From NCBI GenBank assembly GCA_030615505.1, contig JAUWZD010000002.1:2436-66435 (forward strand): DNA of 64,000 bases. The letters are read 5' to 3'. Source of the stretch: Spirochaetales bacterium. Its GTDB lineage: Bacteria > Spirochaetota > Spirochaetia > SZUA-6 > DRHE01. Shown here in pieces: positions 13,113 through 64,000 of this stretch; position 1 is the first letter of the stretch, and each line of letters starts with the position of its first letter. The translations under genes and the position numbers were made by a program. The notes beneath the pieces were generated by a model. The model had not been told where the DNA came from. It saw nothing but the letters and a program-made list of their open reading frames with translations, and made no database searches.

Positions 13113-13783
13113 TATACCCATATACCAAGAGGGCAAAATGTCCTGCAAACGGTATTCAAAGAACATTTTGATGATTTCAGAGAAGTGTATGATGAGAAAT
13201 ATTCAAAAGCATACGGCAAATATCGTATTGATAGAATTAAAGAAGTTGTAGAAGAATTCATAAAATTCGGAGACTATAAAGAAGGTCTTGCTAGAATAAA
13301 ATCCACAGGATGAAACCATGTACCAACCCTGACTGCGGTCATCCACAGGATGCCCGCTGGGTGCCCGCAGGGTGAAACCAAAACCATGATTATTTTGTTC
13401 CCCTATCCTGCAAGGGATTCTATCTATGTCCGTCTTGTCATCAGAAAAGAACCCTCTTGTTTGCAGAACAGATCACACAAGAAGCTCTCTTAAGGCTTCC
13501 GCACAGACAGTGGGTTTTTTGTATTCCCAAGTGCCTTCGAGTGTTTTTCAAGCATGACAGAATGCTGTTCTCCGATATATCCAGGTTGATCTTTCAGATG
13601 CTCCAATCCTACTATGATAAGGTTTTAGCTAATTCTATCCAAACCGGCGGCACCCTGGACGGATCATCCGGATGGGCACATGACATCGAGCAACCCCGCA
13701 CGTACTACGAGAACTCATGCGTTTACTTGAAGTCCTTGTGTCGGGCAGTTCCCTGTGTAAAGCTCATTCAAATGATTGTTTGA
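13113..13783 (+). pseudogene. IS91-family (rolling-circle, HUH Y2) transposase N-terminal fragment. It has no start codon, is interrupted by two repeat-element insertions, and is truncated after the zinc-binding/N-terminal domain.
   Basis: Translation gives FKEHFDDFREVYDEKYSKAYGKYRIDRIKEVVEEFIKFGDYKEGLARIK, then [insert] CTNPDCGH [insert] DYFVPLSCKGFYLCPSCHQKRTLLFAEQITQEALLRLPHRQWVFCIPKCLRVFF. This matches the conserved IS91-family N-terminus (GF-RvrC-CG-SCK-CPSC...HRHWVFTlP). Confidence 0.7.
13302..13386 (+). repeat. Repeat-element copy A. A 17-bp short form (13302–13318) and a 45-bp long form (13342–13386) flank 23 bp of transposase coding sequence.
   Basis: TCCACAGGATGAAACCA, and TCCACAGGATG CCCGCTGGGTG CCCGCAGGGTG AAACCAAAACCA. 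Deleting both restores the transposase reading frame. Confidence 0.7.
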
Positions 13784-21054: not shown

Positions 21055-23171
21055 TATGGGAAAAAATTGAAACAGACCCCGATGAAGTAAGGGAGATCGC
21101 CAGACAGAACGATCTTGACCTGATCTCCTCATCCATACTGATTAGAAGGAATTTAACGGACAGCCGTTCCCTACGTTTCCTGCTCGAGGATGATCTGCTT
21201 CTCCTTCACAATCCCTTTTTGTTCCGGGATATGGAGAAGGCGGTAAACCGTGTAAACCGCGCCATAGATCGGAAAGAGAAGATTATGGTTTTCGGCGACA
21301 GGGATGTAGACGGCATTACATCAACCGTTTTACTGGTCCAGCTCATAAGGGATTTAAGCGGCAGGGTTGAGTGGAAGCTTCCCGGGGAGAATGAAGACTA
21401 TGGGCTCACTCGCCAGGTAATTGAGGATTCGTCTGCCTCTGCCTGCAGCCTGATAATTACAGTAGATTGTGGAATCTCAAATATCGATGAAATAGCCTTA
21501 GCCAGGGAAAGAGGAATAGATACAGTGGTCATAGATCATCATATTCCACAGGATACGCTTCCTGAGGCCGCGGCAATAATAAATCCGAAACAGGCGGGAA
21601 GTACCTACCCGTTCAGAGATCTTGCAGGATGCGCTGTGGCTGCGAAATTTGCCTGGGCTGTGGTTTTCTCAAGCACGCCAATGTACGGCAAACCTGTGTG
21701 GCTTTTAAATATTAAACCGGACAACGAAACCTATTCTGTAGAAGCTGTAAAACTTGTGAACCTGGTGGAAAGAGAGCGCCTGGTTTTAAGTCTGCTTCCC
21801 GAACTTTCAAGCTCGCAGAAAAAACGGCTTTTACCCCTGATGTCGGCAGATGATATTGTAGTTTATGACTCAGCCGGCATGAGGAAACTTATAGACAGAA
21901 TAGGATTAGGTGCTGAGAACCTGAAGCTTACGGATATTCGTCCAATGGTAGGAAAATTCTTTCCGGATTTAGAGGGTAAGAGCCTGCTTAAAATCAAGAG
22001 CCTGATAAGGCCGGCCCAATATGGAAGCCGGGGCTCCGGTGAGCTTGATATGCTGATCAGCCTCCATAATACTGTTATACTGAAACAGGAAAATGCTCTC
22101 CTATCAAAGCAGAATTATTTTATGGATCTGGCGGCCTTAGGTACCCTGGCCGATTTGATGCCCTTAGCTGATGAGAATAGAATCATCGTGAAGAGGGGAT
22201 TGGAAGTTTTAAATCAGATGGGACGCCACGGCCTGCGCGAACTCATTATAAAACAGAGGCTTTACGGAAAGAGAATTACTACCACGGATGTTACCTGGCA
22301 GATTACACCGGTGCTTAATGCCGCCGGAAGGATGGGTGAGCCGGAAAAAGCAGCCTCTCTACTGCTCTCAAATGATCCACATGAGGTTGAAGAACTGGTG
22401 GATTATATTCTCGATCTGAATAGAAAACGAAAATATCTGGGAGATAATGTCTGGAAAAGATGTTTTACCCGGTTCAAAGAGAGCCTCGATAAGGCTGATG
22501 GGAAGTTTATCCTGGTCTATGATCATTCAATTCCAAGAGGAATAACCGGGATCCTGGCCTCCAGATTAATTAATTATTTCAAAGTTCCGGCCATAGCCAT
22601 TGCCGTAAGCCATGATAAAGCTGTCGGTTCTCTTCGCAGTCCGTACTCGCTAGAAGGATTTCTAGATCATTATGCCGATCTTTTTCTAAATTACGGCGGT
22701 CATGATTGCGCGGCAGGTTTCAGCCTGGCCAGTTCCATTATTCCCGAATTTGAATCGAGATTTTACAGGATGATAAGGGAACTTAATCCTCCCGATCATA
22801 GTGGAGAAAAATTGATCATCGATGCTGAGGTGCCTCCCGACTACCTCAATCCAAATTTAATCAGTGTTGTAGAGCTTTTTGAGCCTTACGGAGAAGGCAG
22901 CCCTGTCCTAATTTTCTTGACCCGGCAAGTTAGGATTGAAGCACTGGATATCATCGGTAAAAGCGGTATGTCCCACCTGAAGCTGCTTATCGGAGCCGGG
23001 AAATACAGATGGCCGGCAATTTACTGGAACGCGGCGGAAAGAGCCGGAAAGGATTTTACGGTTCACGACACTGTAGATATCGCATACCGACTGGCAAGAA
23101 ACTATTTTCAGAATACAGAAACCCTTCAGCTTACTATTTTAGATCTGAAACCATCCACAGGATGCCCATAG
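21051..23171 (+). CDS. recJ: Single-stranded-DNA-specific exonuclease RecJ. Its last 6 codons are supplied by repeat element B.
   Basis: DHH motifs (FGDRDVDGITS, VVIDHH) and DHHA1 (GGHDCAAGF). Confidence 0.9.
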   Translation: MIWEKIETDPDEVREIARQNDLDLISSSILIRRNLTDSRSLRFLLEDDLLLLHNPFLFRDMEKAVNRVNRAIDRKEKIMVFGDRDVDGITSTVLLVQLIRDLSGRVEWKLPGENEDYGLTRQVIEDSSASACSLIITVDCGISNIDEIALARERGIDTVVIDHHIPQDTLPEAAAIINPKQAGSTYPFRDLAGCAVAAKFAWAVVFSSTPMYGKPVWLLNIKPDNETYSVEAVKLVNLVERERLVLSLLPELSSSQKKRLLPLMSADDIVVYDSAGMRKLIDRIGLGAENLKLTDIRPMVGKFFPDLEGKSLLKIKSLIRPAQYGSRGSGELDMLISLHNTVILKQENALLSKQNYFMDLAALGTLADLMPLADENRIIVKRGLEVLNQMGRHGLRELIIKQRLYGKRITTTDVTWQITPVLNAAGRMGEPEKAASLLLSNDPHEVEELVDYILDLNRKRKYLGDNVWKRCFTRFKESLDKADGKFILVYDHSIPRGITGILASRLINYFKVPAIAIAVSHDKAVGSLRSPYSLEGFLDHYADLFLNYGGHDCAAGFSLASSIIPEFESRFYRMIRELNPPDHSGEKLIIDAEVPPDYLNPNLISVVELFEPYGEGSPVLIFLTRQVRIEALDIIGKSGMSHLKLLIGAGKYRWPAIYWNAAERAGKDFTVHDTVDIAYRLARNYFQNTETLQLTILDLKPSTGCP

Positions 23172-23221
23172 GGTGCCCACAGGGTGAAACCAAAACCAAA
23201 ACCATCCACAGGATGAAACCA
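23154..23221 (+). repeat. Repeat-element copy B: a 51-bp long form plus a 17-bp short form in tandem, inserted between recJ and the M23 peptidase gene.
   Basis: TCCACAGGATG CCCATAGGGTG CCCACAGGGTG AAACCAAAACCAAAACCA, then TCCACAGGATGAAACCA, then TG. Confidence 0.75.
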
Positions 23222-26880: not shown

Positions 26881-26940
26881 TACAGGGTGCCCACAGGATG
26901 CCCGCAGGGTGCCCACAGGGTGAAACCAAAACCAAAACCA
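26881..26940 (+). repeat. Repeat-element copy C (60 bp) in the divergent intergenic region upstream of modA.
   Basis: TACAGGGTG CCCACAGGATG CCCGCAGGGTG CCCACAGGGTG AAACCAAAACCAAAACCA, then TGG. Confidence 0.75.
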
Positions 26941-34087: not shown

Positions 34088-34160
34088 CGCAGGGTAGAGC
34101 AGTTGGAAGCTCGTCGGGCTCATAACCCGGAGGTCGCAGGTTCGAGTCCTGCCCCTGCTA
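34088..34160 (+). tRNA. tRNA-Met (anticodon CAT) with initiator-type features.
   Basis: The cloverleaf folds by hand: acceptor CGCAGGG/CCCTGCT with an unpaired C1·U72, D-arm GAGC/GCTC, anticodon stem with three G:C pairs next to the loop CTCATAA, and T-arm GCAGG-TTCGAGT-CCTGC. It is close to E. coli tRNA-fMet. No CCA is encoded. Confidence 0.85.
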
Positions 34161-34255: not shown

Positions 34256-35431
34256 GTGCCTCGATATAAGGAGCCGTTTTCTCTCTATCCCAGAAAAACA
34301 AAAAAGGGCGTTGCCGTCTGGTATTATCGAACTTACGATAAGGATGGCGAGCGTACTTATGGCCGATCTACCGGCGAATCTTCAAAGACTCTTGCCCGAC
34401 AATATTGTCAGTCTCTGATTTCCAAAGGCAGATTGATTCCTCAGAAATCACCTACGCTCGCAGAGTGGACAGAGAAAAGGCGATGGTGGATATGGGGAGA
34501 GTGTCTGTATATCAAGGGTCGGCTTGCTCGCTCAGATGTGGATAGACCGGGAATTACTCATCGTTATTGCGATTTGAATTATCAAGTTATGATGAAGAAA
34601 ATTCTATCGATTCATGGAGACAAGCAGCTTGACTCTATTATGCCCGAGGATTGTGAAAAACTATTATTCTCTTGGGCAAATCAGGGAGTCAGTTATAAGA
34701 CTGCAAATAATTGGGCTTCAGTATATCGGGTTATGATGGGCGAGGCAGCCAGATTAAGGATGATAGACGAAAATCCCTGGAAGCGAGTGCTTTCATTATC
34801 TTCCAGCACAAAGAGGCGGGGGATTCTCACGATGGCCGAAGCCCGAACGCTTCTGAATCCGGCGACAATAAACGAAGTGTGGGACAAACACCATATGTAT
34901 TATTGCATCAACCTGATTGCATCTCTCACAGCGATGAGACAGGGGGAGATCCTCGCACTGAGGAAAGAAGATGTGTTCTCCGATCATTTGCATATCAGGC
35001 ATTCATGGTCTGCAAAATATGAGTTGGGGAAAACTAAGACAAAAGAAATTGGCGATGCGCCGATCCCCGGATTTCTGTATCGAGAAATTGAAAAGTATCT
35101 GGAATATGATGGTTATATTTTCAGCTTCAATGGGGGGAAGAGGCCAGCTACAGGGAACCGTGTAACCGAATGGCTATATCGTGCCATGAGAAATATCGGG
35201 ATTTCAGAGCATGAGAGGGTGGAGCGGAATTTAACCTTCCATAGTTGGCGTCATTTTTTCAATACGTATCTGCGGAGCCGGGGCGTGCCAGATTCGCAAA
35301 TAAGGAAAGTTACCCGGCATAAAACCGAAGAAATGACAGAGCATTATACAGAATTCGGATTGGAACATTATAAAGAAACATACGATGCTCAGGATGGATT
35401 CGGGGAATTGATACAGGAGGAAAAAGGATGA
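34256..35431 (+). CDS. Tyrosine-type phage integrase.
   Basis: C-terminal catalytic R...HSWRHFFNTYL...Y pattern and an N-terminal arm-binding region (KKGVAVWYYR). Confidence 0.85.
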   Translation: MPRYKEPFSLYPRKTKKGVAVWYYRTYDKDGERTYGRSTGESSKTLARQYCQSLISKGRLIPQKSPTLAEWTEKRRWWIWGECLYIKGRLARSDVDRPGITHRYCDLNYQVMMKKILSIHGDKQLDSIMPEDCEKLLFSWANQGVSYKTANNWASVYRVMMGEAARLRMIDENPWKRVLSLSSSTKRRGILTMAEARTLLNPATINEVWDKHHMYYCINLIASLTAMRQGEILALRKEDVFSDHLHIRHSWSAKYELGKTKTKEIGDAPIPGFLYREIEKYLEYDGYIFSFNGGKRPATGNRVTEWLYRAMRNIGISEHERVERNLTFHSWRHFFNTYLRSRGVPDSQIRKVTRHKTEEMTEHYTEFGLEHYKETYDAQDGFGELIQEEKG

Positions 35432-53005: not shown

Positions 53006-54703
53006 TCATCGCAATTCCTCTATTACCATTTCCGCAACTTCCTCTTTCGCTTCTTCTTTATCGCCGTCTCCATTTTCCCCTGAAGGCAGTATTGCTGGAG
53101 CCAGCGATTTCTTCGCTTCGGTCAGTTCTGGATTTTCAACTTTTAGACGTTCGATGTTTTCGGAGAATTCCGATCCGTTATAGATCCTCGCTTCCCGTTC
53201 TCCAGTTGTATGTCCGAGACCAGTTCTGAGTTGGACAGCCTTGACCTCTTTAAGCGGATCAATTGAGGGCTTGCTGATTCCAGTCCAAGAGCAATTGAGC
53301 CAGGCACGGCGGGTAACAGCGGTTTTCCATCCAAGCGCTTTAATCCGATTTGATTCAATCTCTCCACCCATCCAAGCTTCCAGTAGAGGATTGAGAATAT
53401 CTGCCCCGATATTGACTCGGTATATGGCGATATCGTTCCAAAATAGGATCAGAGTCGCACGGGAAGCGGAATAATTTTGATTGAATGACATTTCCACACA
53501 TTCATCCGGGATTCCGATTGATGCGGAGAGACCCGATTTTATGGATTTGACAAACGTATCACGATTTGCGCTGGGACGTTTTGTGTCGATTTCACTGATT
53601 TTCTCGCCTGGCCCAAGATTCTGGATTATAAGACCGGGCTTATGAATTACGCCGGTTGTAGGCGGGTTGATCTGCGTAGATTCAAATAATTCTGCGCCGG
53701 TATTCCTTAGCCGGATGCCATCAAAAGGTCTTGAAGAAGCTTTCCCTTCCGACGGCTCAATATAAGCTGCGATACAAGCGTTGATTATCATCGACTCGAT
53801 TTCTGCGACATCGGCGTCGGTAAGTTTTTGCAACTCATGGATCATGTTTGCCAGTATGGGAATTCCCCGTACCTGGCCGACGGAATCAATGAGAGGCGAA
53901 TGGATCATGAAAAGTTTCCCGGATTTAGGGCCTTTTCGGATTACGCGGGTTGGTTTTCCAGTTTCCTCATCGTGGACATAATAGGCGATTTCCTCACCCG
54001 TTTTGCTGATTTCGATACCGTCAACAATTTTGTTACCACGAAGTTTCGCAGCTTTGAGCATTTCGGAGCTGCCGGGAGTATATATTTGATCAGGCTGAAA
54101 AAATTGAACATAGAGTGGATTCATGCGGGAATTATCAGATGAATAATGAAGGCGTAAAAATGTTTCGCCGTCTCGGAGTCTGTTAAGAAATTCAAAAGTT
54201 TCAAGTTGATAGAGCGTCATACGACCCGAGGCACTCGGCTCTTTCGAGTTTGCCCAGAGGTGGTACCGAGACTCAGTGTTACGAATCCAGACTCGCTTTT
54301 CTTCTTCAGATGCCTTCAGCCAGCAGATTTCCCAGATCGGCGCAGATTCCAGCTTCAGCCCGGTATTGACGGTATTGTCTACGAGCCTACCTATAAGTGC
54401 TCGGCCATGTACGCTTTCCCAATATGCGATGCGAGACCGCCGGCGTAATTTTTCATGATCGAGATTCCAGCCGGAAGGATAACCAAGTGCGCCTGGATAT
54501 TTCCCGCCTGAAAATGTCGAGGTCAATCCGCTCTGGCCTGTCCAAGAAGACATGGCTATAGCGGAGTGTCGGAATAATCGGCGGAGAGATGCCCGCCCTA
54601 GATCGATTTGCGTGCCGGGAAACTCTCGATCCAGTTCCTGAATTGCAGTGGCATAATCTCGGTCAACGGATTTTCTTCGGCGGAATAGATTGAGCAATTT
54701 CAT
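53006..54703 (-). CDS. Portal protein (lambda gpB family).
   Basis: 565 aa, directly downstream of TerL and gpW. Phage_portal_2-like. Confidence 0.75.
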   Translation of the reverse strand: MKLLNLFRRRKSVDRDYATAIQELDREFPGTQIDLGRASLRRLFRHSAIAMSSWTGQSGLTSTFSGGKYPGALGYPSGWNLDHEKLRRRSRIAYWESVHGRALIGRLVDNTVNTGLKLESAPIWEICWLKASEEEKRVWIRNTESRYHLWANSKEPSASGRMTLYQLETFEFLNRLRDGETFLRLHYSSDNSRMNPLYVQFFQPDQIYTPGSSEMLKAAKLRGNKIVDGIEISKTGEEIAYYVHDEETGKPTRVIRKGPKSGKLFMIHSPLIDSVGQVRGIPILANMIHELQKLTDADVAEIESMIINACIAAYIEPSEGKASSRPFDGIRLRNTGAELFESTQINPPTTGVIHKPGLIIQNLGPGEKISEIDTKRPSANRDTFVKSIKSGLSASIGIPDECVEMSFNQNYSASRATLILFWNDIAIYRVNIGADILNPLLEAWMGGEIESNRIKALGWKTAVTRRAWLNCSWTGISKPSIDPLKEVKAVQLRTGLGHTTGEREARIYNGSEFSENIERLKVENPELTEAKKSLAPAILPSGENGDGDKEEAKEEVAEMVIEELR

Positions 54704-55106: not shown

Positions 55107-56969
55107 TCAAGTATGTTCTTGAAAACCTTTTTCTGCCCATTGCCAGAAAAGTTCCCAGGAGAATTCCTTGTCTCCAAACGTCATTTCCCAGCGCTTGACG
55201 GCAAAATAACGGAGAGCACCCATAGCATAGACTCGGCAATCATGAGCGTGATTATCCCGTCCGTGTTTCAAATGCCAGGCATAATGAGGTTTGCCGAATT
55301 TGTCTTTTTCGGAGAATTTCTCTTCAGCAGTGAGCTGCCGGAAGTATTTTTCCCCGTACTCGCCAGGGAAATGACAATATCCGTATGGATAATCCTGCCC
55401 GGGTTCGGGGACGCCCTTGGCAAGATAGGAATATAATTCCTGCTTCAGCGAATCCGTATACAAATCGATTCGTTTCACTTGGTGGCCCCTATCTGTCAGG
55501 CTTTTCTCTATGAAAAGTTGGGCCTTCTGTCCTACTCTCGCATCGCCCATGATCGGGAAAACCCCATCCACGAACTGATCGCAGAATTCATATACTGTCG
55601 GCGTATTATATCCAGCATCAATAAATGCCATTTTGCTTTCCAAATCCGCATGTTTGGATAGTAATATGTTTTTCAGTTTTTGCCAGACCTCGCCCTCGAT
55701 TTTTTCTGTCTGGCCTTCAAGAATGAGATGGTTTACGCTCCAGCTCTCTTTGTCTTTCCCCCAAGCTAGCAGCTCTACTACGATGTTGTCGGCATGTACG
55801 TCCACACCGACAGTAAGAAAAAATGCCTTGCCAGGGCAAGTGCCAGTCGAATAACCTTCGCGCCGGAGCATGATCCGCTCATACCGGGGAGCTATGCCCT
55901 TTTCTATCCAGGTTTCGCCGAATACGGTATTAACGAAAACTCGGAGCATGGGCGGATCATCTTTGACTGTGATCCATTCCTGGCAGATTGATTCCCAGGA
56001 GCGCATACCTACCGGGGAATAGAAAGAGGCAAGATGATAGCTGCGATAATTCGGCTCCGTCGGAATTACCGTCGGGCGCCATTCGCCAAAACCAAGAAAC
56101 TCGGTTTTATCTGAGTTTTTCATTTCTCGATTACACTTATCGCACTCATAAAATACAGCCGGCCAGATAAGCCTTCCCATCTCATCTTGTTTGTAATGCA
56201 TGTGATCCCATTTTAGCACCTGGAATGTTCCGCACTTCAAGCAGGGAATATTATAATATCGTTGATCGCCTTTCAGAAATGCTTGCTTGATCCGGCTCGT
56301 CTGTTCAATCAATGGGGTTGAGATATCGAGGATTTTTCGAATGCTTTCAAAAGCATCCGTTCGCCGATCAGTCAATTTGATCGGATCTCCTTCTTTTGAG
56401 ACTTCCTGCGGGTAGGCATCTATCTCGTCTCGCAGCATATATCTAATCGAGATCATGCGGAGCTTGCCCCCGCTGTTCGGACCGACGGCCAGGAGGAAGC
56501 CGCCCGCAAATTCCTTTTTTGATTTTGTATCACCGGTTTTTTTGGAATGTTTTTTTTCCGATTGTGAAAATATTTTTCGGGACAATCCCGCAGACTCGAT
56601 CATCCTGTCAACTCGCAGCTCGATGCTCTGCTCGGCAACGGTTTTGTCTGCCGACAAGAACATCGTAGGCCCAGGAACTGCATCAATAATATAGCCGAGT
56701 ACGTTTTCCAGGATGCCAACCGTGAATCCGAGTTGAGCGCCCTTCATGATGGCAACATGCTGAATCGGCGAGGATTCCGAAAAACAATCGGCGATCTCCC
56801 GAAGATACGGTGTCACTTCCCACCGGAAAGGCCCCGGCATTGGGCTTATACCAACTGGCAGGAATCGTTTCTGTTCCGCCCACTCGGAAACTTTGAGGCG
56901 CGTATCTACCCTGAATCCTTCGGCTATGAGATGGTCGATCCAGATAGTTTCATCAAGCTCGCTCTGCAT
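55107..56969 (-). CDS. Terminase large subunit (lambda GpA family).
   Basis: N-terminal GpA-type ATPase region and C-terminal nuclease. 620 aa. Confidence 0.85.
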   Translation of the reverse strand: MQSELDETIWIDHLIAEGFRVDTRLKVSEWAEQKRFLPVGISPMPGPFRWEVTPYLREIADCFSESSPIQHVAIMKGAQLGFTVGILENVLGYIIDAVPGPTMFLSADKTVAEQSIELRVDRMIESAGLSRKIFSQSEKKHSKKTGDTKSKKEFAGGFLLAVGPNSGGKLRMISIRYMLRDEIDAYPQEVSKEGDPIKLTDRRTDAFESIRKILDISTPLIEQTSRIKQAFLKGDQRYYNIPCLKCGTFQVLKWDHMHYKQDEMGRLIWPAVFYECDKCNREMKNSDKTEFLGFGEWRPTVIPTEPNYRSYHLASFYSPVGMRSWESICQEWITVKDDPPMLRVFVNTVFGETWIEKGIAPRYERIMLRREGYSTGTCPGKAFFLTVGVDVHADNIVVELLAWGKDKESWSVNHLILEGQTEKIEGEVWQKLKNILLSKHADLESKMAFIDAGYNTPTVYEFCDQFVDGVFPIMGDARVGQKAQLFIEKSLTDRGHQVKRIDLYTDSLKQELYSYLAKGVPEPGQDYPYGYCHFPGEYGEKYFRQLTAEEKFSEKDKFGKPHYAWHLKHGRDNHAHDCRVYAMGALRYFAVKRWEMTFGDKEFSWELFWQWAEKGFQEHT

Positions 56970-57513
56970 CTGAGATTTCCTTTAAGAACTTTCGCAAGTC
57001 GGAGTCCATGGATTCGCTGATCTCACGGGCAAGTTGCTGAGAGTCTATTTTATCAAGAACTTTATGAATTGCTTTTGCCTTGCTGAGCTTTTCAATATGC
57101 CGGATCAGGATCGAGGCAAGAGTGTGCGCATGTCGGGCGGGTAAGGTCATCATGTGAGATTTTATGAGGGTCAATTTCGGGAGGAGCCTTTTTTGAAGAT
57201 TTTCTTTTGAGATAAGATCTCCCTCTTTTTCCTTGAATTTCAGTTCTTTGAGCTTGTAATCAATCTGCTTATTGGCAGCGAGAAGCTTCTGATATGTATT
57301 ATCTTTGACCTGATTCTTGCCCGCACCCATACCGCGGCTTTGATGGTCCTTCTCAGGGTGTCGATTCTGCGCCCAGGCTATGCTCTGAGAGGCCCAATCT
57401 ATCTTGCCGGAGGGTGTTTTAATGATGCGGCCTGTACCGATAGCCTTGTTTACGACTTGGCGGGAGACTCCCATGCGGCGGGCGAATTCGCTTTGAGAAA
57501 TTAATTCGGGCAT
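56953..57513 (-). CDS. Putative terminase small subunit (N-terminal HTH).
   Basis: ISQSEFARRMGVSRQVVNKAIGTGRI HTH, and position directly upstream of TerL. Confidence 0.5.
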   Translation of the reverse strand: MPELISQSEFARRMGVSRQVVNKAIGTGRIIKTPSGKIDWASQSIAWAQNRHPEKDHQSRGMGAGKNQVKDNTYQKLLAANKQIDYKLKELKFKEKEGDLISKENLQKRLLPKLTLIKSHMMTLPARHAHTLASILIRHIEKLSKAKAIHKVLDKIDSQQLAREISESMDSDLRKFLKEISDAERA

Positions 57514-58182
57514 TTAGACCTCTGGGAAGAGCAAAATAACGTCTTTGAGGAATTTCTCAATCCGTTTTTGTTTTCTCCGGTTGATAATGTTGATTATTTT
57601 TCCGGCGATGATAGGACTGACCGATTCTGAAATATCGCCGATTTGGACAAAGGTCTTATCCGGTTTTTCTATTACTTCCGGCTCTGTTTCTTCTTCAGGA
57701 TCATCAATCAGAATATCCTCGATATTTATGTCTGGCAATTCCAAGTCATCAACATTGATTTCCAGGCCGTCTATGAATTCATGTAGACCTTCCAGGTCAA
57801 TTGTGCCGTATTTGCTATTCAGGCGGAGAAGTTTCTGCTTGGCATCATCAATATCTTTAGCATCCACTCTGCAGGCAGGGAATCGAGGGAGCTGTCCTCC
57901 GAGTTGGCTGAATATCTGTAGGGCTATCAGGCGACCATGGCCGTCGAGTACATAGCGGTGGCCGTCCAGATAGGCGTAGAAGAAGGGGAAGGAAAAACCA
58001 TAGTCCCGAATGCTGCGCAAGATTTTGATAATATCGCTTTCGGTGCGGGTTTTAAGCTCGCTCTGGAAATCCTCGAAATAATCGAGAGGAAGATTTTCAT
58101 TACCGTTGCATTCGATGCGTATTTGGAATGGGAACTCCTGATCTGAGAGCTCGTTGACAATTGCGCCGAGATTTAGATCCAT
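57514..58182 (-). CDS. ParB-like nuclease domain protein, first gene of the late operon.
   Basis: YVLDGHGRLIAL ParB/sulfiredoxin-fold motif. Confidence 0.6.
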   Translation of the reverse strand: MDLNLGAIVNELSDQEFPFQIRIECNGNENLPLDYFEDFQSELKTRTESDIIKILRSIRDYGFSFPFFYAYLDGHRYVLDGHGRLIALQIFSQLGGQLPRFPACRVDAKDIDDAKQKLLRLNSKYGTIDLEGLHEFIDGLEINVDDLELPDINIEDILIDDPEEETEPEVIEKPDKTFVQIGDISESVSPIIAGKIINIINRRKQKRIEKFLKDVILLFPEV

Positions 58183-58190
58183 AGTGCCTC

Positions 58191-58237
58191 CTGTATAAAA
58201 AACTATACAGGGGGAGGCGGTTTGTCAACCTTGTCAA
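58191..58237 (-). promoter_or_regulatory. Late-operon promoter/operator: a perfect palindrome CTGTATA-N6-TATACAG (58191–58210) overlapping a -10-like TATAGT and abutting the SD. Two TTGTCAAC direct repeats supply TTGACA -35 hexamers.
   Basis: Minus strand reads TTGACAaggTTGACA-15nt-TATAGT...TATACAGGAGGcactATG. Confidence 0.4.
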
Positions 58238-58368
58238 CTCGAAAAAAAAAGTTATCAGTTTACACGCTCAATACTACTCACGTTTACCCTCTGATTCTAC
58301 AAGATCGAGCACAGTACCTTAATCTATTAGCAATTATCATGCCATGCTCCGGGGAACGGGATGCATGC

Positions 58369-58402
58369 GGGGGGAATTTAGGGGGAATTTAGGGGGAATA
58401 TT
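58369..58402. repeat. Three direct repeats of GGGGGAATTTA (11-bp period) about 190 bp upstream of the late operon.
   Basis: Read directly: GGGGGGAATTTAGGGGGAATTTAGGGGGAATATTT. Confidence 0.5.
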
Positions 58403-58844
58403 TCAGCTATAAAAAAGGCAGCCATATAAGCTGCCCAACCGACTTACGTCAGGGAGTCGTAAATATATATTAATTCACGGAATCCATAGTATCAAGTGTT
58501 CTTTTAGCACCGCTCATTATCGCCTAAAAGTATCGCAATAAATACCGCTGAGACGAGCATGAAGGGGTCTACAAGCGACTTTGTTAGCCAAATGGTACTT
58601 GGACACCATCTTTGCCTCATAATATCACATCGCTACAAATGTAAATCCTTATATTATCAGTAAATAAATATCTACTATTTCACCCCTCTCACACCGCCGT
58701 TATTTGCCTCTTTTCCCCGATTCTGCTATACTAATCTCATGGCTAAATTCAGAAAACAATTAGGCAAAAGCAGAGTACAAAAAGGTGGCAATAACGGAAC
58801 GCCAGTAAATCCAAAGCCACAGGCTTTGCGTCCTAAACCTCCTC

Positions 58845-59501
58845 TTGAAGATGGTAAAACACATGGCTAAATCCATATTCAGTATCACCACCGATGTGAA
58901 GAAATACACAAAGCAAATGAACCGGGTCAACAAGGAGCTGCTGCCGAAGGCGATAGGTAATACAATGAATCGTGCTTGCAACGCATCTCATAGCCGGAGC
59001 ATACGGAATATTAAAAGCGATCTTATTCTCCGTAATCAATACACCGAACGATCCATGATCCTCTGGAAATCGAAATACAAGCCTGGCCGGAGCATCGACC
59101 GTATCAGTGCTACTACTGGCTCTAAATCTCCTTACCTCCCGCTCCAGGAAACAGGCGGAGTTGTGAGAGCAAAAAAGAGCAAGATCCCTGTCCCCACCCT
59201 GGCGGGCAGGCGAGGCAAGTGGAGAAAGCCGATCCCGCCAAGCTTGCGGATGAACCGGATGGGAGCGATAGGCACTGAAGGCTCTAAGTTCTTTTTTATG
59301 AAAAGCCCAGGCGGGAAAAAGGGGATTTTCTATCGTAAGTCAAAAAAGAAGATCGTCAAAGTAAGGGATATTTCCAGGCGGAGCTATCGGATCAAGGCTA
59401 CTCGTTGGCATAGTGAGGCAGTAAAGAAATTCGGCAATAAGCGTATTATGGGCCAGCTATTTGTCCAGGAGGCTAAGAGGCAGTTGGCGAAGGTGAGTTA
59501 G
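58845..59501 (+). CDS. Hypothetical very basic phage protein.
   Basis: 218-aa ORF, Lys/Arg-rich. Start uncertain (TTG at 58845, ATG at 58851 or 58866). Confidence 0.35.
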   Translation: MKMVKHMAKSIFSITTDVKKYTKQMNRVNKELLPKAIGNTMNRACNASHSRSIRNIKSDLILRNQYTERSMILWKSKYKPGRSIDRISATTGSKSPYLPLQETGGVVRAKKSKIPVPTLAGRRGKWRKPIPPSLRMNRMGAIGTEGSKFFFMKSPGGKKGIFYRKSKKKIVKVRDISRRSYRIKATRWHSEAVKKFGNKRIMGQLFVQEAKRQLAKVS

Positions 59502-60956: not shown

Positions 60957-61325
60957 CTATGAATGAACCTGGTCAGTATTCTCTTTTTCTCTCCTAGCCT
61001 GTTCTGCCATCGATTTAAGTATTTCTCGAATAGCATTTAATTTGACATCGTTCAAGACCTTGAGATCTTCCACAATATCGGCGGGTGGAAGCCATTGAGC
61101 TTTTTTCCAAATTACCAAACTTTCAACAGTTGTTTCGAGAACTTTAGCAATCATGACGGCTCTATCCGCAGGAGGGAATCTATCCTCTGAAATCCAATTT
61201 GAAACTGTAGAAGATGCTAGATTTTCGCCAAATTTAAGAGCAATTGCTGCCCGAAGAGAAGCCCAACTATCATATCCCAATTCTTCCATCCTTTTTTCAA
61301 CTTTACCCCAGAAAAGGTTAATCAT
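60957..61325 (-). CDS. XRE-family HTH protein, putative prophage repressor.
   Basis: HTH ASSTVSNWISEDRFPPADRAVMIAKVL. Divergent from the early genes. Confidence 0.55.
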   Translation of the reverse strand: MINLFWGKVEKRMEELGYDSWASLRAAIALKFGENLASSTVSNWISEDRFPPADRAVMIAKVLETTVESLVIWKKAQWLPPADIVEDLKVLNDVKLNAIREILKSMAEQARREKENTDQVHS

Positions 61326-61412
61326 AATTTATTTATCGTAAATACGAGTAAAAAACGTAAATATTTTTATTTTACTATTGCATTATCTCGCAAACAGGAG
61401 TATAATCAGCTC

Positions 61413-61604
61413 ATGAAACGATCAAATGCTCCTAAACACGAGAATAAAAAACATCCTTTGACGGTGAACCTACCATTTACGGAAGAACAAGAGCGACTTT
61501 TCAATGAATATTGCCATAAATATCAAAAAATCAAAGGCCGTTTTGTTATAAGTCTTATTTTACAGGAAATCGAAAAAGAAGCTCTTGAGAGCGTGAAGAT
61601 ATAA
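61413..61604 (+). CDS. Small early protein (Cro-like position).
   Basis: 63 aa, the first gene divergent from the repressor. Confidence 0.3.
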   Translation: MKRSNAPKHENKKHPLTVNLPFTEEQERLFNEYCHKYQKIKGRFVISLILQEIEKEALESVKI

Positions 61605-63431: not shown

Positions 63432-64000
63432 ATGAATAATATCGTGAGCCTCTCAGGAGGCAAGGACTCAACTGCGCTAGTCCACATGATGCTTGAGCGT
63501 GGAGAGCCTATTACAGATGTTGTTATGTTCGATACCGGCTGGGAATTCCCTCAAATGCACGACCATCTCAAGGAAATCGAGAGAAAGACCGGCATCACGA
63601 TTACCAGATTAAAGCCTGAAAAACCATTCACATATTTTCTGCTTGAACATCCGGTCAAGATCAGGAAAGGTCCCGAGAAAGGACAGATTAATAGAATCGG
63701 CAACGGCTGGCCTTCTCCTTTCCGTCGATGGTGTACAAGGATCAAGGTTGATACCATCGAGAAATACATCTCCAGATATAAAAATCCTGTCCAGCTCATC
63801 GGCTACGCTTACGAAGAAATGCATCGAATAAAATTCAATAGCAAATACCCGAAGCGATACCCGCTGATTGAATTGAAAATCACAGAAGATGATGCTCTGA
63901 AATATTGCCGGGAGCTCGGATATACCTGGGGCGGATTATACGATCATTTCAAGCGGGTGAGCTGCTTTTGCTGCCCGTTGCAAGGACTCAAGAATCTCAG
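63432..64000 (+). CDS. PAPS reductase / PP-loop ATP pyrophosphatase family protein (3' partial, runs off the window).
   Basis: SLSGGKDS PP-loop. Open frame to nt 64000. C-terminal CFCCP. Confidence 0.75.
   Translation, partial: MNNIVSLSGGKDSTALVHMMLERGEPITDVVMFDTGWEFPQMHDHLKEIERKTGITITRLKPEKPFTYFLLEHPVKIRKGPEKGQINRIGNGWPSPFRRWCTRIKVDTIEKYISRYKNPVQLIGYAYEEMHRIKFNSKYPKRYPLIELKITEDDALKYCRELGYTWGGLYDHFKRVSCFCCPLQGLKNL

Follow-up and report, generated by a model that had tools for sequence, protein, structure and literature searches.

Introduction

Phages that package their DNA with a Nu1/gpA-like terminase carry the cos site beside the packaging genes. In phage lambda, this site is a tripartite, conserved non-coding block that lies just upstream of the packaging genes and is laid out as cosQ, cosN and cosB. 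Another described system that resembles part of the present locus is IS10/Tn10, in which fold-back inhibition of transposase translation reportedly protects the element against external promoters (Davis, Simons & Kleckner 1985, Cell 43:379). There, an inverted repeat places its 3' arm over the ribosome-binding site, the start site of the element itself is located between the two arms, and the hairpin can be formed only by transcripts from outside.

The genome ends of the Rhodobacter phage RcBaka (RcC cluster) have been defined experimentally as 11-nt 5' overhangs (PMC8601537). The left end lies 163 nt upstream of its ParB-like gene 1 (nt 164), and three direct repeats and a tandem GTTGCCAGTTGCCA are found in between. 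The terminase large subunit (TerL) of RcBaka is 33% identical to the TerL described here. In VP16T and the Rhodobacter RcC phages, TerL is located about 0.9-2.9 kb from the start of the record.

Here, we describe positions 58183-58436 of a stretch of DNA of 64,000 nt, which is called the window throughout. We read this segment as the head of a late (packaging and virion) operon, consisting of a promoter, a fold-back hairpin, a cos block and non-conserved repeats, and we regard this composite reading as evenly balanced. Each element is of a well-known kind (promoter, Shine-Dalgarno-masking hairpin, cos-like block, slippage repeat), and the phage lineage is new. Because this lineage is uncharacterised, with a TerL that is at most 38% identical to that of any catalogued phage and an uncultured spirochaete as the host, its promoter, probable cos block and proposed insulation hairpin would aid the annotation and induction of such prophages.

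The Prophage and Its Late Operon

The window holds part of a bacterial chromosome with host genes that include Lon, RecO and RecJ. The Lon protein has about 79% identity to its counterparts in uncultured Spirochaetales MAGs. The prophage spans from the tRNA-Met gene and the adjoining integrase gene to past position 64000 (Table 1). All its late genes are on the minus strand, in the order ParB-like gene, small terminase subunit (TerS), TerL, gpW-like adaptor, lambda-type portal, S49 head protease, major capsid protein, tail sheath and tape measure. As in lambda, TerL combines a GpA ATPase with a GpA nuclease domain, TerS carries a helix-turn-helix (HTH) at its N-terminus, and the portal is of the lambda type. 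We propose that it is a lambda-type cos prophage integrated at tRNA-Met in an uncultured spirochaete. The features described below lie in an intergenic region of 556 nt between the ParB-like gene and the divergent gp10-like gene. The initial annotation, which was made from the sequence alone, had placed the control region of the late operon here. This was borne out, since the ParB-like, TerS, TerL and portal genes follow on the same strand and the promoter is kept in all nine sequences compared. The sequence features that it listed exist and exceed what chance would give; the names operator and iteron are interpretations.

The N-terminal part of the ParB-like protein matched phrog_498 (E 9e-12, PHROG), and 'ParB N-terminal domain-containing protein [Rectinema sp.]' is the name given to one homologue. 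Profile searches of the PDB with the ParB-like protein and TerS were uninformative (E at least 0.02). Relatives of the ParB-like protein at 73-88% identity were found in metagenomes. Their contigs were fetched, and metagenome contigs were also scanned with a motif of this region, TAAACTGA-N11-TTCGAGKTGACA. In nine distinct sequences, the ParB-like gene follows (the window, L139, L133, L147, L141/L142, L005, L004/L138, L006 and L148). In a variant form (L007/L132, L140, L146), the promoter and the ParB-like gene are separated by an inserted HNH endonuclease gene, and six sequences (L128-L131, L134, L135) have the same upstream block followed by a different operon. The closest relative is L139, with a ParB-like protein that is 87% identical. 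It aligns with the window at about 80% over the whole intergenic region except 58360-58440. The TerS HTH is nearly invariant among the relatives, and L139 and the window have the recognition-helix sequence in common.

No close phage relative was found among 50,697 phage records by megablast (positions 57400-59000) or by tblastn of the ParB-like protein. When IMG/VR was scanned for the conserved block, a loose pattern returned only chance matches and a strict pattern returned none. Two viral contigs with ParB-like genes at 46% identity lack the block. Searches of GTDB genomes with the protein and with the pattern found nothing. In Rfam, the whole window had no match that reached the gathering threshold, 58100-58900 had none at E<=1, and the conserved block had none either.

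Table 1. Positions of the features of the prophage and of the region heading its late operon.
Feature	Position	Strand	Remarks
tRNA-Met	34088-34160
Integrase gene	34256-35431
Lambda-type portal gene	53006-54703	-	Phage_portal_2, E 4e-53
gpA-type TerL gene	55107-56969	-	GpA_ATPase, E 3e-67; GpA_nuclease, E 2e-59
Nu1-like TerS gene	56953-57513	-	N-terminal HTH; phrog_57, E 5e-17
ParB-like gene	57514-58182	-	ParB N-terminal/nuclease-type; first in the late/packaging operon; phrog_620, E 2.9e-8
ATG of ParB-like gene	58182-58180	-	Direct reading
Shine-Dalgarno AGGAGG	58187-58192	-	4 nt before the ATG; direct reading
Inverted repeat, predicted RNA hairpin	58187-58214	-	Arms 58187-58197 and 58204-58214; 11 nt, one mismatch
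Overlapping -10 candidates	58200-58207	-	TATAGT 58207-58202 (15-nt spacer); TAGTTT 58205-58200 (17-nt spacer, canonical)
Proximal TTGACA box	58223-58228	-	Putative -35; from the sequence and relatives
Tandem boxes TTGACAaggTTGACA	58237-58223	-	Followed by 15 nt and TATAGT
Distal box TTCGAGTTGACA	58232-58243	-	Right edge of the conserved block, invariant; no other exact match in the window; kept in all relatives
Conserved non-coding block	58232-58335	-	About 105 bp here, 112 bp between L131 and L133; candidate cosQ-cosN-cosB
Block motif T9	58250-58242	-
Block motif GTAAACTGA	58263-58255	-
Block motif AGAGGGT	58292-58286	-
Block motif AAGGTACTGT	58320-58311	-
Sigma-54-like -24/-12 motif TGGCATgataaTTGCT	58329-58344	-	10/11 positions; 3 matches in the window vs 1.7 expected, not above chance
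Tandem 11-mer GGGGGAATTTA	58370-58402		Two perfect copies and a degenerate third
Terminator-like hairpin GGGCAGC..GCTGCCT and T run	58408-58436	-	Hairpin 58436-58416; directly upstream of the repeats
Second leaderless promoter	58704-58741		TTGCCT-17-TATACT-6-ATG
gp10-like 'minor tail' gene	58863-59501	+	Divergent from the ParB-like gene

The Conserved Block as a Candidate cos Site

The best-conserved element of the region is a non-coding block between the 11-mer repeats and the promoter, which the initial annotation had missed. It occurs once in the window. On the minus strand it reads AAGGTACTGT, 15 or 16 nt, TyAGAGGGT, 23 nt, GTAAACTGA, 11 nt and TTCGAGTTGACA. The spacing is fixed, with no indels from GGGT to the box in an alignment of 12 sequences. 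Between L131 and L133, the block is 100% identical from AGATTATATC to TTGACA, and the genes downstream are different. A structured RNA was considered for this block and rejected, as RNAalifold gave -6.1 and -2.7 kcal/mol on the two strands with little covariation and the leader folds of single sequences were not significant.

We suggest that the Nu1-like TerS and gpA-like TerL use the block as their cos site, which on the sequence comparison we consider slightly on the probable side. The block occupies the stretch from 50 to 150 nt before the operon start and adjoins the genes of both terminase subunits. In this arrangement, AAGGTACTGT would be the cosQ-like element, the cut would fall near AGAG/GGGT, and GTAAACTGA with one or more GTTGACA boxes would be found towards the terminase genes. 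Candidate sites for TerS binding (cosB) are the GTTGACA boxes, present in 1-4 copies, and GTAAACTGA. The layout of cosQ, cosN and cosB in lambda resembles the spacing of the block motifs: one motif precedes the proposed cut by about 22-31 nt, and repeats follow on the side of the terminase genes. The block differs from lambda in that it has no sequence similarity to lambda cos beyond the GGG start, and a ParB-like gene and a promoter are found between the block and TerS. In addition, no clear two-fold symmetry was found around the proposed cut. Short palindromes of the relatives are lineage-specific (CAGCGCTG in L133 and AAGCagGCTT in L004); by inspection they have no common centre, and none is found in the window.

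The ends of metagenome contigs are compatible with this assignment. Four contigs from other samples begin inside the block, at about +1, +21, +22 and +28 from GGGT. L005 starts at the GGT of AGAGGGT, L148 at +22, and L141 (+21) and L142 (+28) start with the tips of Nextera adapters. Among contigs with the whole ParB-like gene, the upstream flanks measure 17, 73, 80, 83, 99, 362, 454, 719 and 973 nt, so that four fall within 26 nt. Other contigs read through the block, and two further ends (L149, L140) are downstream of it. The overlaps kept at the contig ends are 57, 35, 28 and 34 nt (57 nt in a SPAdes contig, 35 and 28 nt in Logan contigs), which is near typical k values of assemblers. As the block is common to co-occurring elements, the contig ends may be assembly breaks, and we take them as moderate evidence for cos.

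The comparison with RcBaka points in the same direction. Both loci have a genome end (here a candidate), direct repeats, a tandem GTTGNCA pair and a gene for a ParB-like nuclease as the first gene. The two ParB-like proteins show hardly any similarity (27% over 83 residues). The RcBaka repeats (GTTTCCACTT, three copies with a period of 13) are downstream of the end, whereas the 11-mers of the window are upstream of the proposed cut, and the TerS of RcBaka lies 2 kb further on, unlike that of the window. Taken together, the gpA-type terminase, the four contig ends in the block and the RcBaka arrangement suggest a cos site.

The block may also be a portable late-promoter module, to which a late activator would bind ahead of a -35-like box. 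Such a module would precede different late operons and occur in related or satellite-like elements. We think this possible but not very likely. In six elements (L128-L131, L134, L135), the block is found before a 90-aa gene, a gp10-like gene, a tail chaperone and a tape measure, and it is preceded by a head protease and a coiled-coil (scaffold-like) protein; on these short contigs, no terminase or capsid gene is in view. The position before tail-gene operons fits a portable promoter or activator module at least as well as cos, and this second context fits either a portable late module or a satellite with the cos or the promoter of a helper. The block is always co-oriented with the operon and directly before its first gene, often after a terminator-like hairpin, and the TTGACA box forms its right edge. 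The identity of the L131 and L133 blocks in two different contexts is also in keeping with a module. However, the late genes in the window span more than 24 kb and contain only one copy, and extra boxes shift the distance from the block to the -10 by 9-16 nt, which breaks the helical phasing. Moreover, a terminase of the Nu1/gpA type needs a cos site nearby, for which no other conserved non-coding candidate is present, and the clustering of contig ends in the block is another point against a module. The two explanations of the block are not mutually exclusive.

The Late Promoter and the Palindrome

The tandem TTGACA boxes followed by 15 nt and TATAGT were present as first described, and a canonical 17-nt option stands alongside (Table 1). 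The exact tandem occurs once in the window, and with up to one mismatch two occurrences were found, compared with 0.36 expected. In the window, TTGACA-15-TATAGT fits the consensus at 11/12 positions and TTGACA-17-TAGTTT at 9/12. A TTGACA-like box and a TAnnnT hexamer 15-17 nt apart precede the ParB-like gene in all nine distinct ParB-context sequences. Most relatives have TATAAT at 15 nt and TAATAT at 17 nt; the exceptions are L006 (TAATCT at 16 nt) and L148 (TACTTT at 17 nt). The number of boxes in these sequences varies from one to three with a period of 7-9 bp, and the last copy is at promoter distance. In L128 and L130, no box is at promoter distance from an A/T-rich hexamer. These data support well a late promoter of the sigma-70 type, as the box and the position of the -10 are conserved; the start site would be about 11-13 nt upstream of the ATG. 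A standard scan with 16-18-nt spacing missed this promoter because the 15-nt spacer was disallowed and the 17-nt option scored below the threshold. We had regarded the 15-nt spacer as an anomaly and withdrew this view, since the overlapping -10 offers 17 nt in every sequence. Two more promoters of the same phage have a 17-nt spacing and are of the leaderless type, namely that of the cro-like gene (TTGCAT-17-TATAAT-6-ATG) and the one listed in Table 1.

The palindrome that had been noted over the -10 and the Shine-Dalgarno sequence is present, and its perfect core, CCTGTATA-N6-TATACAGG, measures 8 bp, one more than counted before. The 5' arm CCCCCTGTATA (58214-58204) overlaps the -10, the loop covers 58203-58198, and the 3' arm TATACAGGAGG (58197-58187) holds the Shine-Dalgarno sequence. 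When the stretch from the last box to the ATG was folded, the window gave -16.3 kcal/mol (z -5.4), and none of 200 shuffled sequences was as stable. The corresponding values were -21.2 kcal/mol for L147 (z -5.2), -18.2 for L141 (z -3.3), -10.6 for L139 (z -3.0) and -13.9 for L006 (z -2.3). The signal was weak in L148 (-11.0 kcal/mol, z -1.5), L005 (-10.7 kcal/mol, z -0.8) and L004 (-9.7 kcal/mol, z -0.4). A single hairpin with its 3' arm reaching into the Shine-Dalgarno sequence was predicted in all eight sequences folded, and in each of them the 5' arm is a C-rich stretch within the promoter spacer that pairs with the Shine-Dalgarno sequence. The sequence of the arms varies: L148 has CCTGTCT/AGACAGG, and the arms of L006 pair through two G·U pairs and do not form a DNA palindrome. 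In all nine ParB-context sequences, the loop or the 3' arm contains the predicted start site, whichever -10 is chosen.

Since the hairpin is kept while the arm sequence changes, an RNA fold-back fits these data better than a fixed operator. From the sequence comparison, the palindrome is more likely a fold-back that masks the Shine-Dalgarno sequence and insulates the gene against read-through transcripts than an operator. The C-rich promoter spacer CCUCCCCCUGUAUA would pair with UAUACAGGAGG, which bears the Shine-Dalgarno sequence. Transcripts of the late promoter itself would lack the anti-Shine-Dalgarno arm because they begin in the loop or the 3' arm, and their Shine-Dalgarno sequence would be free. 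Transcripts coming in from upstream, possibly from the operon on the cI side or by reading across cos ends that have been joined, would carry both arms and be masked. The hairpin would thus keep outside transcription from driving translation of the ParB-like gene, as in IS10. The two systems share the inverted repeat with its 3' arm over the ribosome-binding site, the own start site (here predicted) between the arms, and a hairpin that only transcripts from outside could form. They differ in that the gene here heads a phage late operon instead of encoding a transposase, and there is no antisense RNA partner.

The operator proposed in the initial annotation would bind a dimeric phage repressor or activator at CTGTATA-N6-TATACAG over the -10/+1 to switch late transcription. 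At the DNA level, the palindrome has no mismatch over 8 bp and is centred approximately on the predicted start site, and the half-site yTGTATA/TATACAr occurs in the window, L139, L133, L147 and L141, and with one mismatch in L005. Nevertheless, we consider an operator doubtful, and the comparison did not support it. No second copy of the palindrome with up to one mismatch was found in the 64 kb, including the region between cI and cro, where a shared operator would be expected, and its absence there argues against an operator. L004, L006 and L148 retain the hairpin with other sequences, and the L006 arms, as noted, are not a DNA palindrome. The pairing also extends into the Shine-Dalgarno sequence and the C-rich complement, which an operator would not need. 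Three further candidates were rejected. A CI operator in common with the cI-cro region was not found there. The gammaproteobacterial LexA (SOS) box is CTGT-N8-ACAG, whereas the spacing found here is CTGT-N12-ACAG, in a spirochaete host. The inverted pair GTTGACAA and TTGTCAAC that brackets the start codon was treated as chance because it is not conserved in L004.

The GTTGACA boxes could be recognition repeats of the Nu1-like TerS (cosB), instead of or besides serving as the -35. Their copy number varies from one to four with the 7-9-bp period, and their place, about +45 to +70 from the proposed cut towards the terminase genes, is comparable to that of R3 in lambda. RcBaka carries GTTGCCAGTTGCCA at the equivalent place, and the boxes are conserved, as is the TerS HTH. 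On the other hand, the box is a perfect -35 consensus with a -10 hexamer at promoter distance in all nine ParB-context sequences, and boxes are present also in elements without an adjacent TerS gene. We regard a role of the boxes as TerS repeats as unlikely.

The Repeats Upstream of the Block

Three 11-bp direct repeats had been reported at 58369-58402. The array is real, but it amounts to 2.7 copies and starts one position later. Its perfect part (58370-58399) gave 100% matches and a TRF score of 60, and the third unit, GGGGGAATATT (58392-58402), has two mismatches. Taken singly, the 11-mer is no more frequent in the window than expected, with 23 matches at up to two mismatches against 27 expected, so only the tandem arrangement is special. 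The array and the terminator-like hairpin are located in the stretch 58360-58440 that does not align with L139. This hairpin is not clearly conserved in L139, and analogous hairpins are found before the block in L130 and L135.

At the same site, about 40-50 nt upstream of AAGGTACTGT in the relatives, L139 has no tandem repeat and shows a C-rich stretch instead. L004 has a different 11-mer (AAAGCTTAACC, four copies), L147/L133 have an 8-mer (AGTACAGA, three copies) inside a long inverted repeat, and L006 and L007 have no repeats. Because L139 shares the TerS recognition helix and lacks the 11-mers, these are not a conserved site for an activator, TerS or the ParB-like protein; as the TerS HTH is almost invariant among the relatives, the 11-mers do not track TerS specificity. 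The initial proposal that they are sites for a late activator, partition or packaging was thus not upheld, given their absence in L139 and the unrelated repeats in other relatives. Iterons are typically 17-22 bp, conserved and near rep/par genes, and were rejected for an array of 11 bp in 2.7 copies that is absent in the closest relative. A parS centromere was also rejected, as there is no parS-like palindrome of about 16 bp and no ParA gene, and the protein matches only the ParB N-terminal/nuclease-type domain. We concluded from the sequence comparison that the 11-mers are probably a recent, lineage-specific tandem expansion in a hypervariable spacer and have no conserved role.

The 11-mers as functional phased sites, for example as an upstream activating sequence for the sigma-54-like motif at 58344-58329 or as sites for a phage-specific protein, are very improbable in our view: only the window and L004 have 11-bp arrays and the motif TGGCA(C/T)-N5-TTGC(A/T), which lies 15-25 nt downstream of the array in both, is perfect in L004 (TGGCACagtgaTTGCA, 11/11, at the homologous place) and keeps its consensus positions while its spacer differs at 4/5 positions, and three lineages have some short repeat at this place, but the motif is absent in L139, L006, L007 and L133, the first of which also lacks repeats, the motif of the window alone is near chance expectation (Table 1), the repeats are nearer to the -24 element than typical enhancer sites, the prophage part within the window has no gene for an enhancer-binding protein, and perfect copies suggest recent slippage. 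As a speculation, A/T tracts phased at 11 bp might bend DNA, which would be an architectural role at most.

Elements That Share the Block

That the identical block occurs in two gene settings may point to the exchange of a module or to a relationship between helper and satellite, and we know of no such helper/satellite relationship in the spirochaete phylum. The block of about 112 bp may be a portable cos and/or late-promoter cassette, common to full lambda-type helper phages of free-living spirochaetes, which have the ParB-like, TerS and TerL genes, and to compact satellite-like elements that would hijack the terminase or the late activator of the helper. This is a long shot, and a cassette shared between two types of element is the one thread worth following. 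Since the contigs of the second group are short, satellite is a tentative term for it. As in P2 and P4, a helper and a satellite that share cos and late-promoter modules, the same short non-coding module stands in a full packaging-operon context and in compact elements with part of the virion genes. Unlike P4, the compact elements, as known from their short contigs, carry tail-related genes (gp10-like, chaperone and tape measure) and a head protease.

Compact elements, and insertions beside the packaging genes

The conserved non-coding block that is a candidate cos (window 58232-58335, minus strand) was also found in a family of compact elements on the metagenome contigs L128-L131, L134 and L135. 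Ahead of the block they encode an S49 head protease, a protein of 84 aa and a coiled-coil protein of ~230 aa, and then have a terminator; after the block come genes for a protein of 90 aa, a gp10-like protein, a tail chaperone and the tape measure. Two of the contigs show more: an SDH-type protease and a methylase follow on L129, and a small HTH gene lies upstream on L135. These contigs could represent mosaic or defective prophages, or satellites.

In other metagenome contigs, HNH-type endonuclease genes (see the table) were inserted either downstream of the promoter but ahead of the ParB-like gene, together with a long structured leader, or immediately after the ParB-like gene. These genes beside the packaging genes look like mobile homing-type insertions.

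Features of the window and of related contigs
Feature	Sequence	Position	Strand	Context
HNH-type endonuclease gene	L007/L132	754-1293
HNH-type endonuclease gene	L140	76-729
HNH-type endonuclease gene	L146
HNH-type endonuclease gene	L148	781-1323
Promoter-like TTGATA-17-TAATAT	window	58495-58467	-
Leaderless-looking promoter TTGCCT-17-TATACT-6-ATG	window	within 58704-58875	+	ahead of 43-aa ORF 58739-58870
Leaderless-looking promoter TTGCAT-17-TATAAT-6-ATG	window	within 61375-61415	+	ahead of cro-like gene (61413)
Host intergenic element, copy 1	window	13344-13388	+
Host intergenic element, copy 2	window	23155-23204	+
Host intergenic element, copy 3	window	26882-26940	+

Promoter-like and regulatory sequences

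Upstream of the late operon, ~210 nt of non-coding DNA (58490-58700) show 75-80% identity to the closest relative, L139, and this stretch contains no ORF of at least 40 aa and no Rfam match. The promoter-like sequence TTGATA-17-TAATAT is followed by two hairpins and then by a putative terminator (58436-58416), and transcription from this predicted promoter to the terminator would yield a minus-strand RNA of ~50 nt. The whole unit (58408-58495) lies in a hypervariable segment, and comparison of the window with L139 showed no conservation of it. A sigma-54-like -24/-12 motif (window 58329-58344, minus strand; L004 2822-2837) is confined, among the relatives, to the two sequences with 11-bp tandem arrays, and the L004 copy is a perfect TGGCACagtgaTTGCA.

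Judged by their sequence, the promoters of the 43-aa ORF and of the cro-like gene look leaderless, and the same geometry is present in L004 and L006. The start region ATGGCTAAAT(T/C)CA occurs twice in the window (58733-58751 and 58857-58875), and the second copy is likely the true start of the gp10-like gene. In the cI-cro intergenic region (61320-61375) the motif CGTAAATA occurs twice in direct orientation, at a distance of 19 nt, and short ATTTA/TAAAT dyads are also present. Both are candidate operators, and they are unrelated to the late-promoter palindrome.

In the host DNA, each of the three intergenic element copies consists of 3-4 tandem 11-mers (CCACAGGGTGC/CCACAGGATGC) and (AAACCA)x2-3, with an ATG immediately after. 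The three downstream genes are unrelated; the copies may belong to a dispersed repeat family, or the element may serve as a leader.

In the Logan contigs L141 and L142 the first 19 nt are contaminating adapter sequence (Nextera mosaic end, AGATGTGTATAAGAGACAG), which bears on the interpretation of contig ends.
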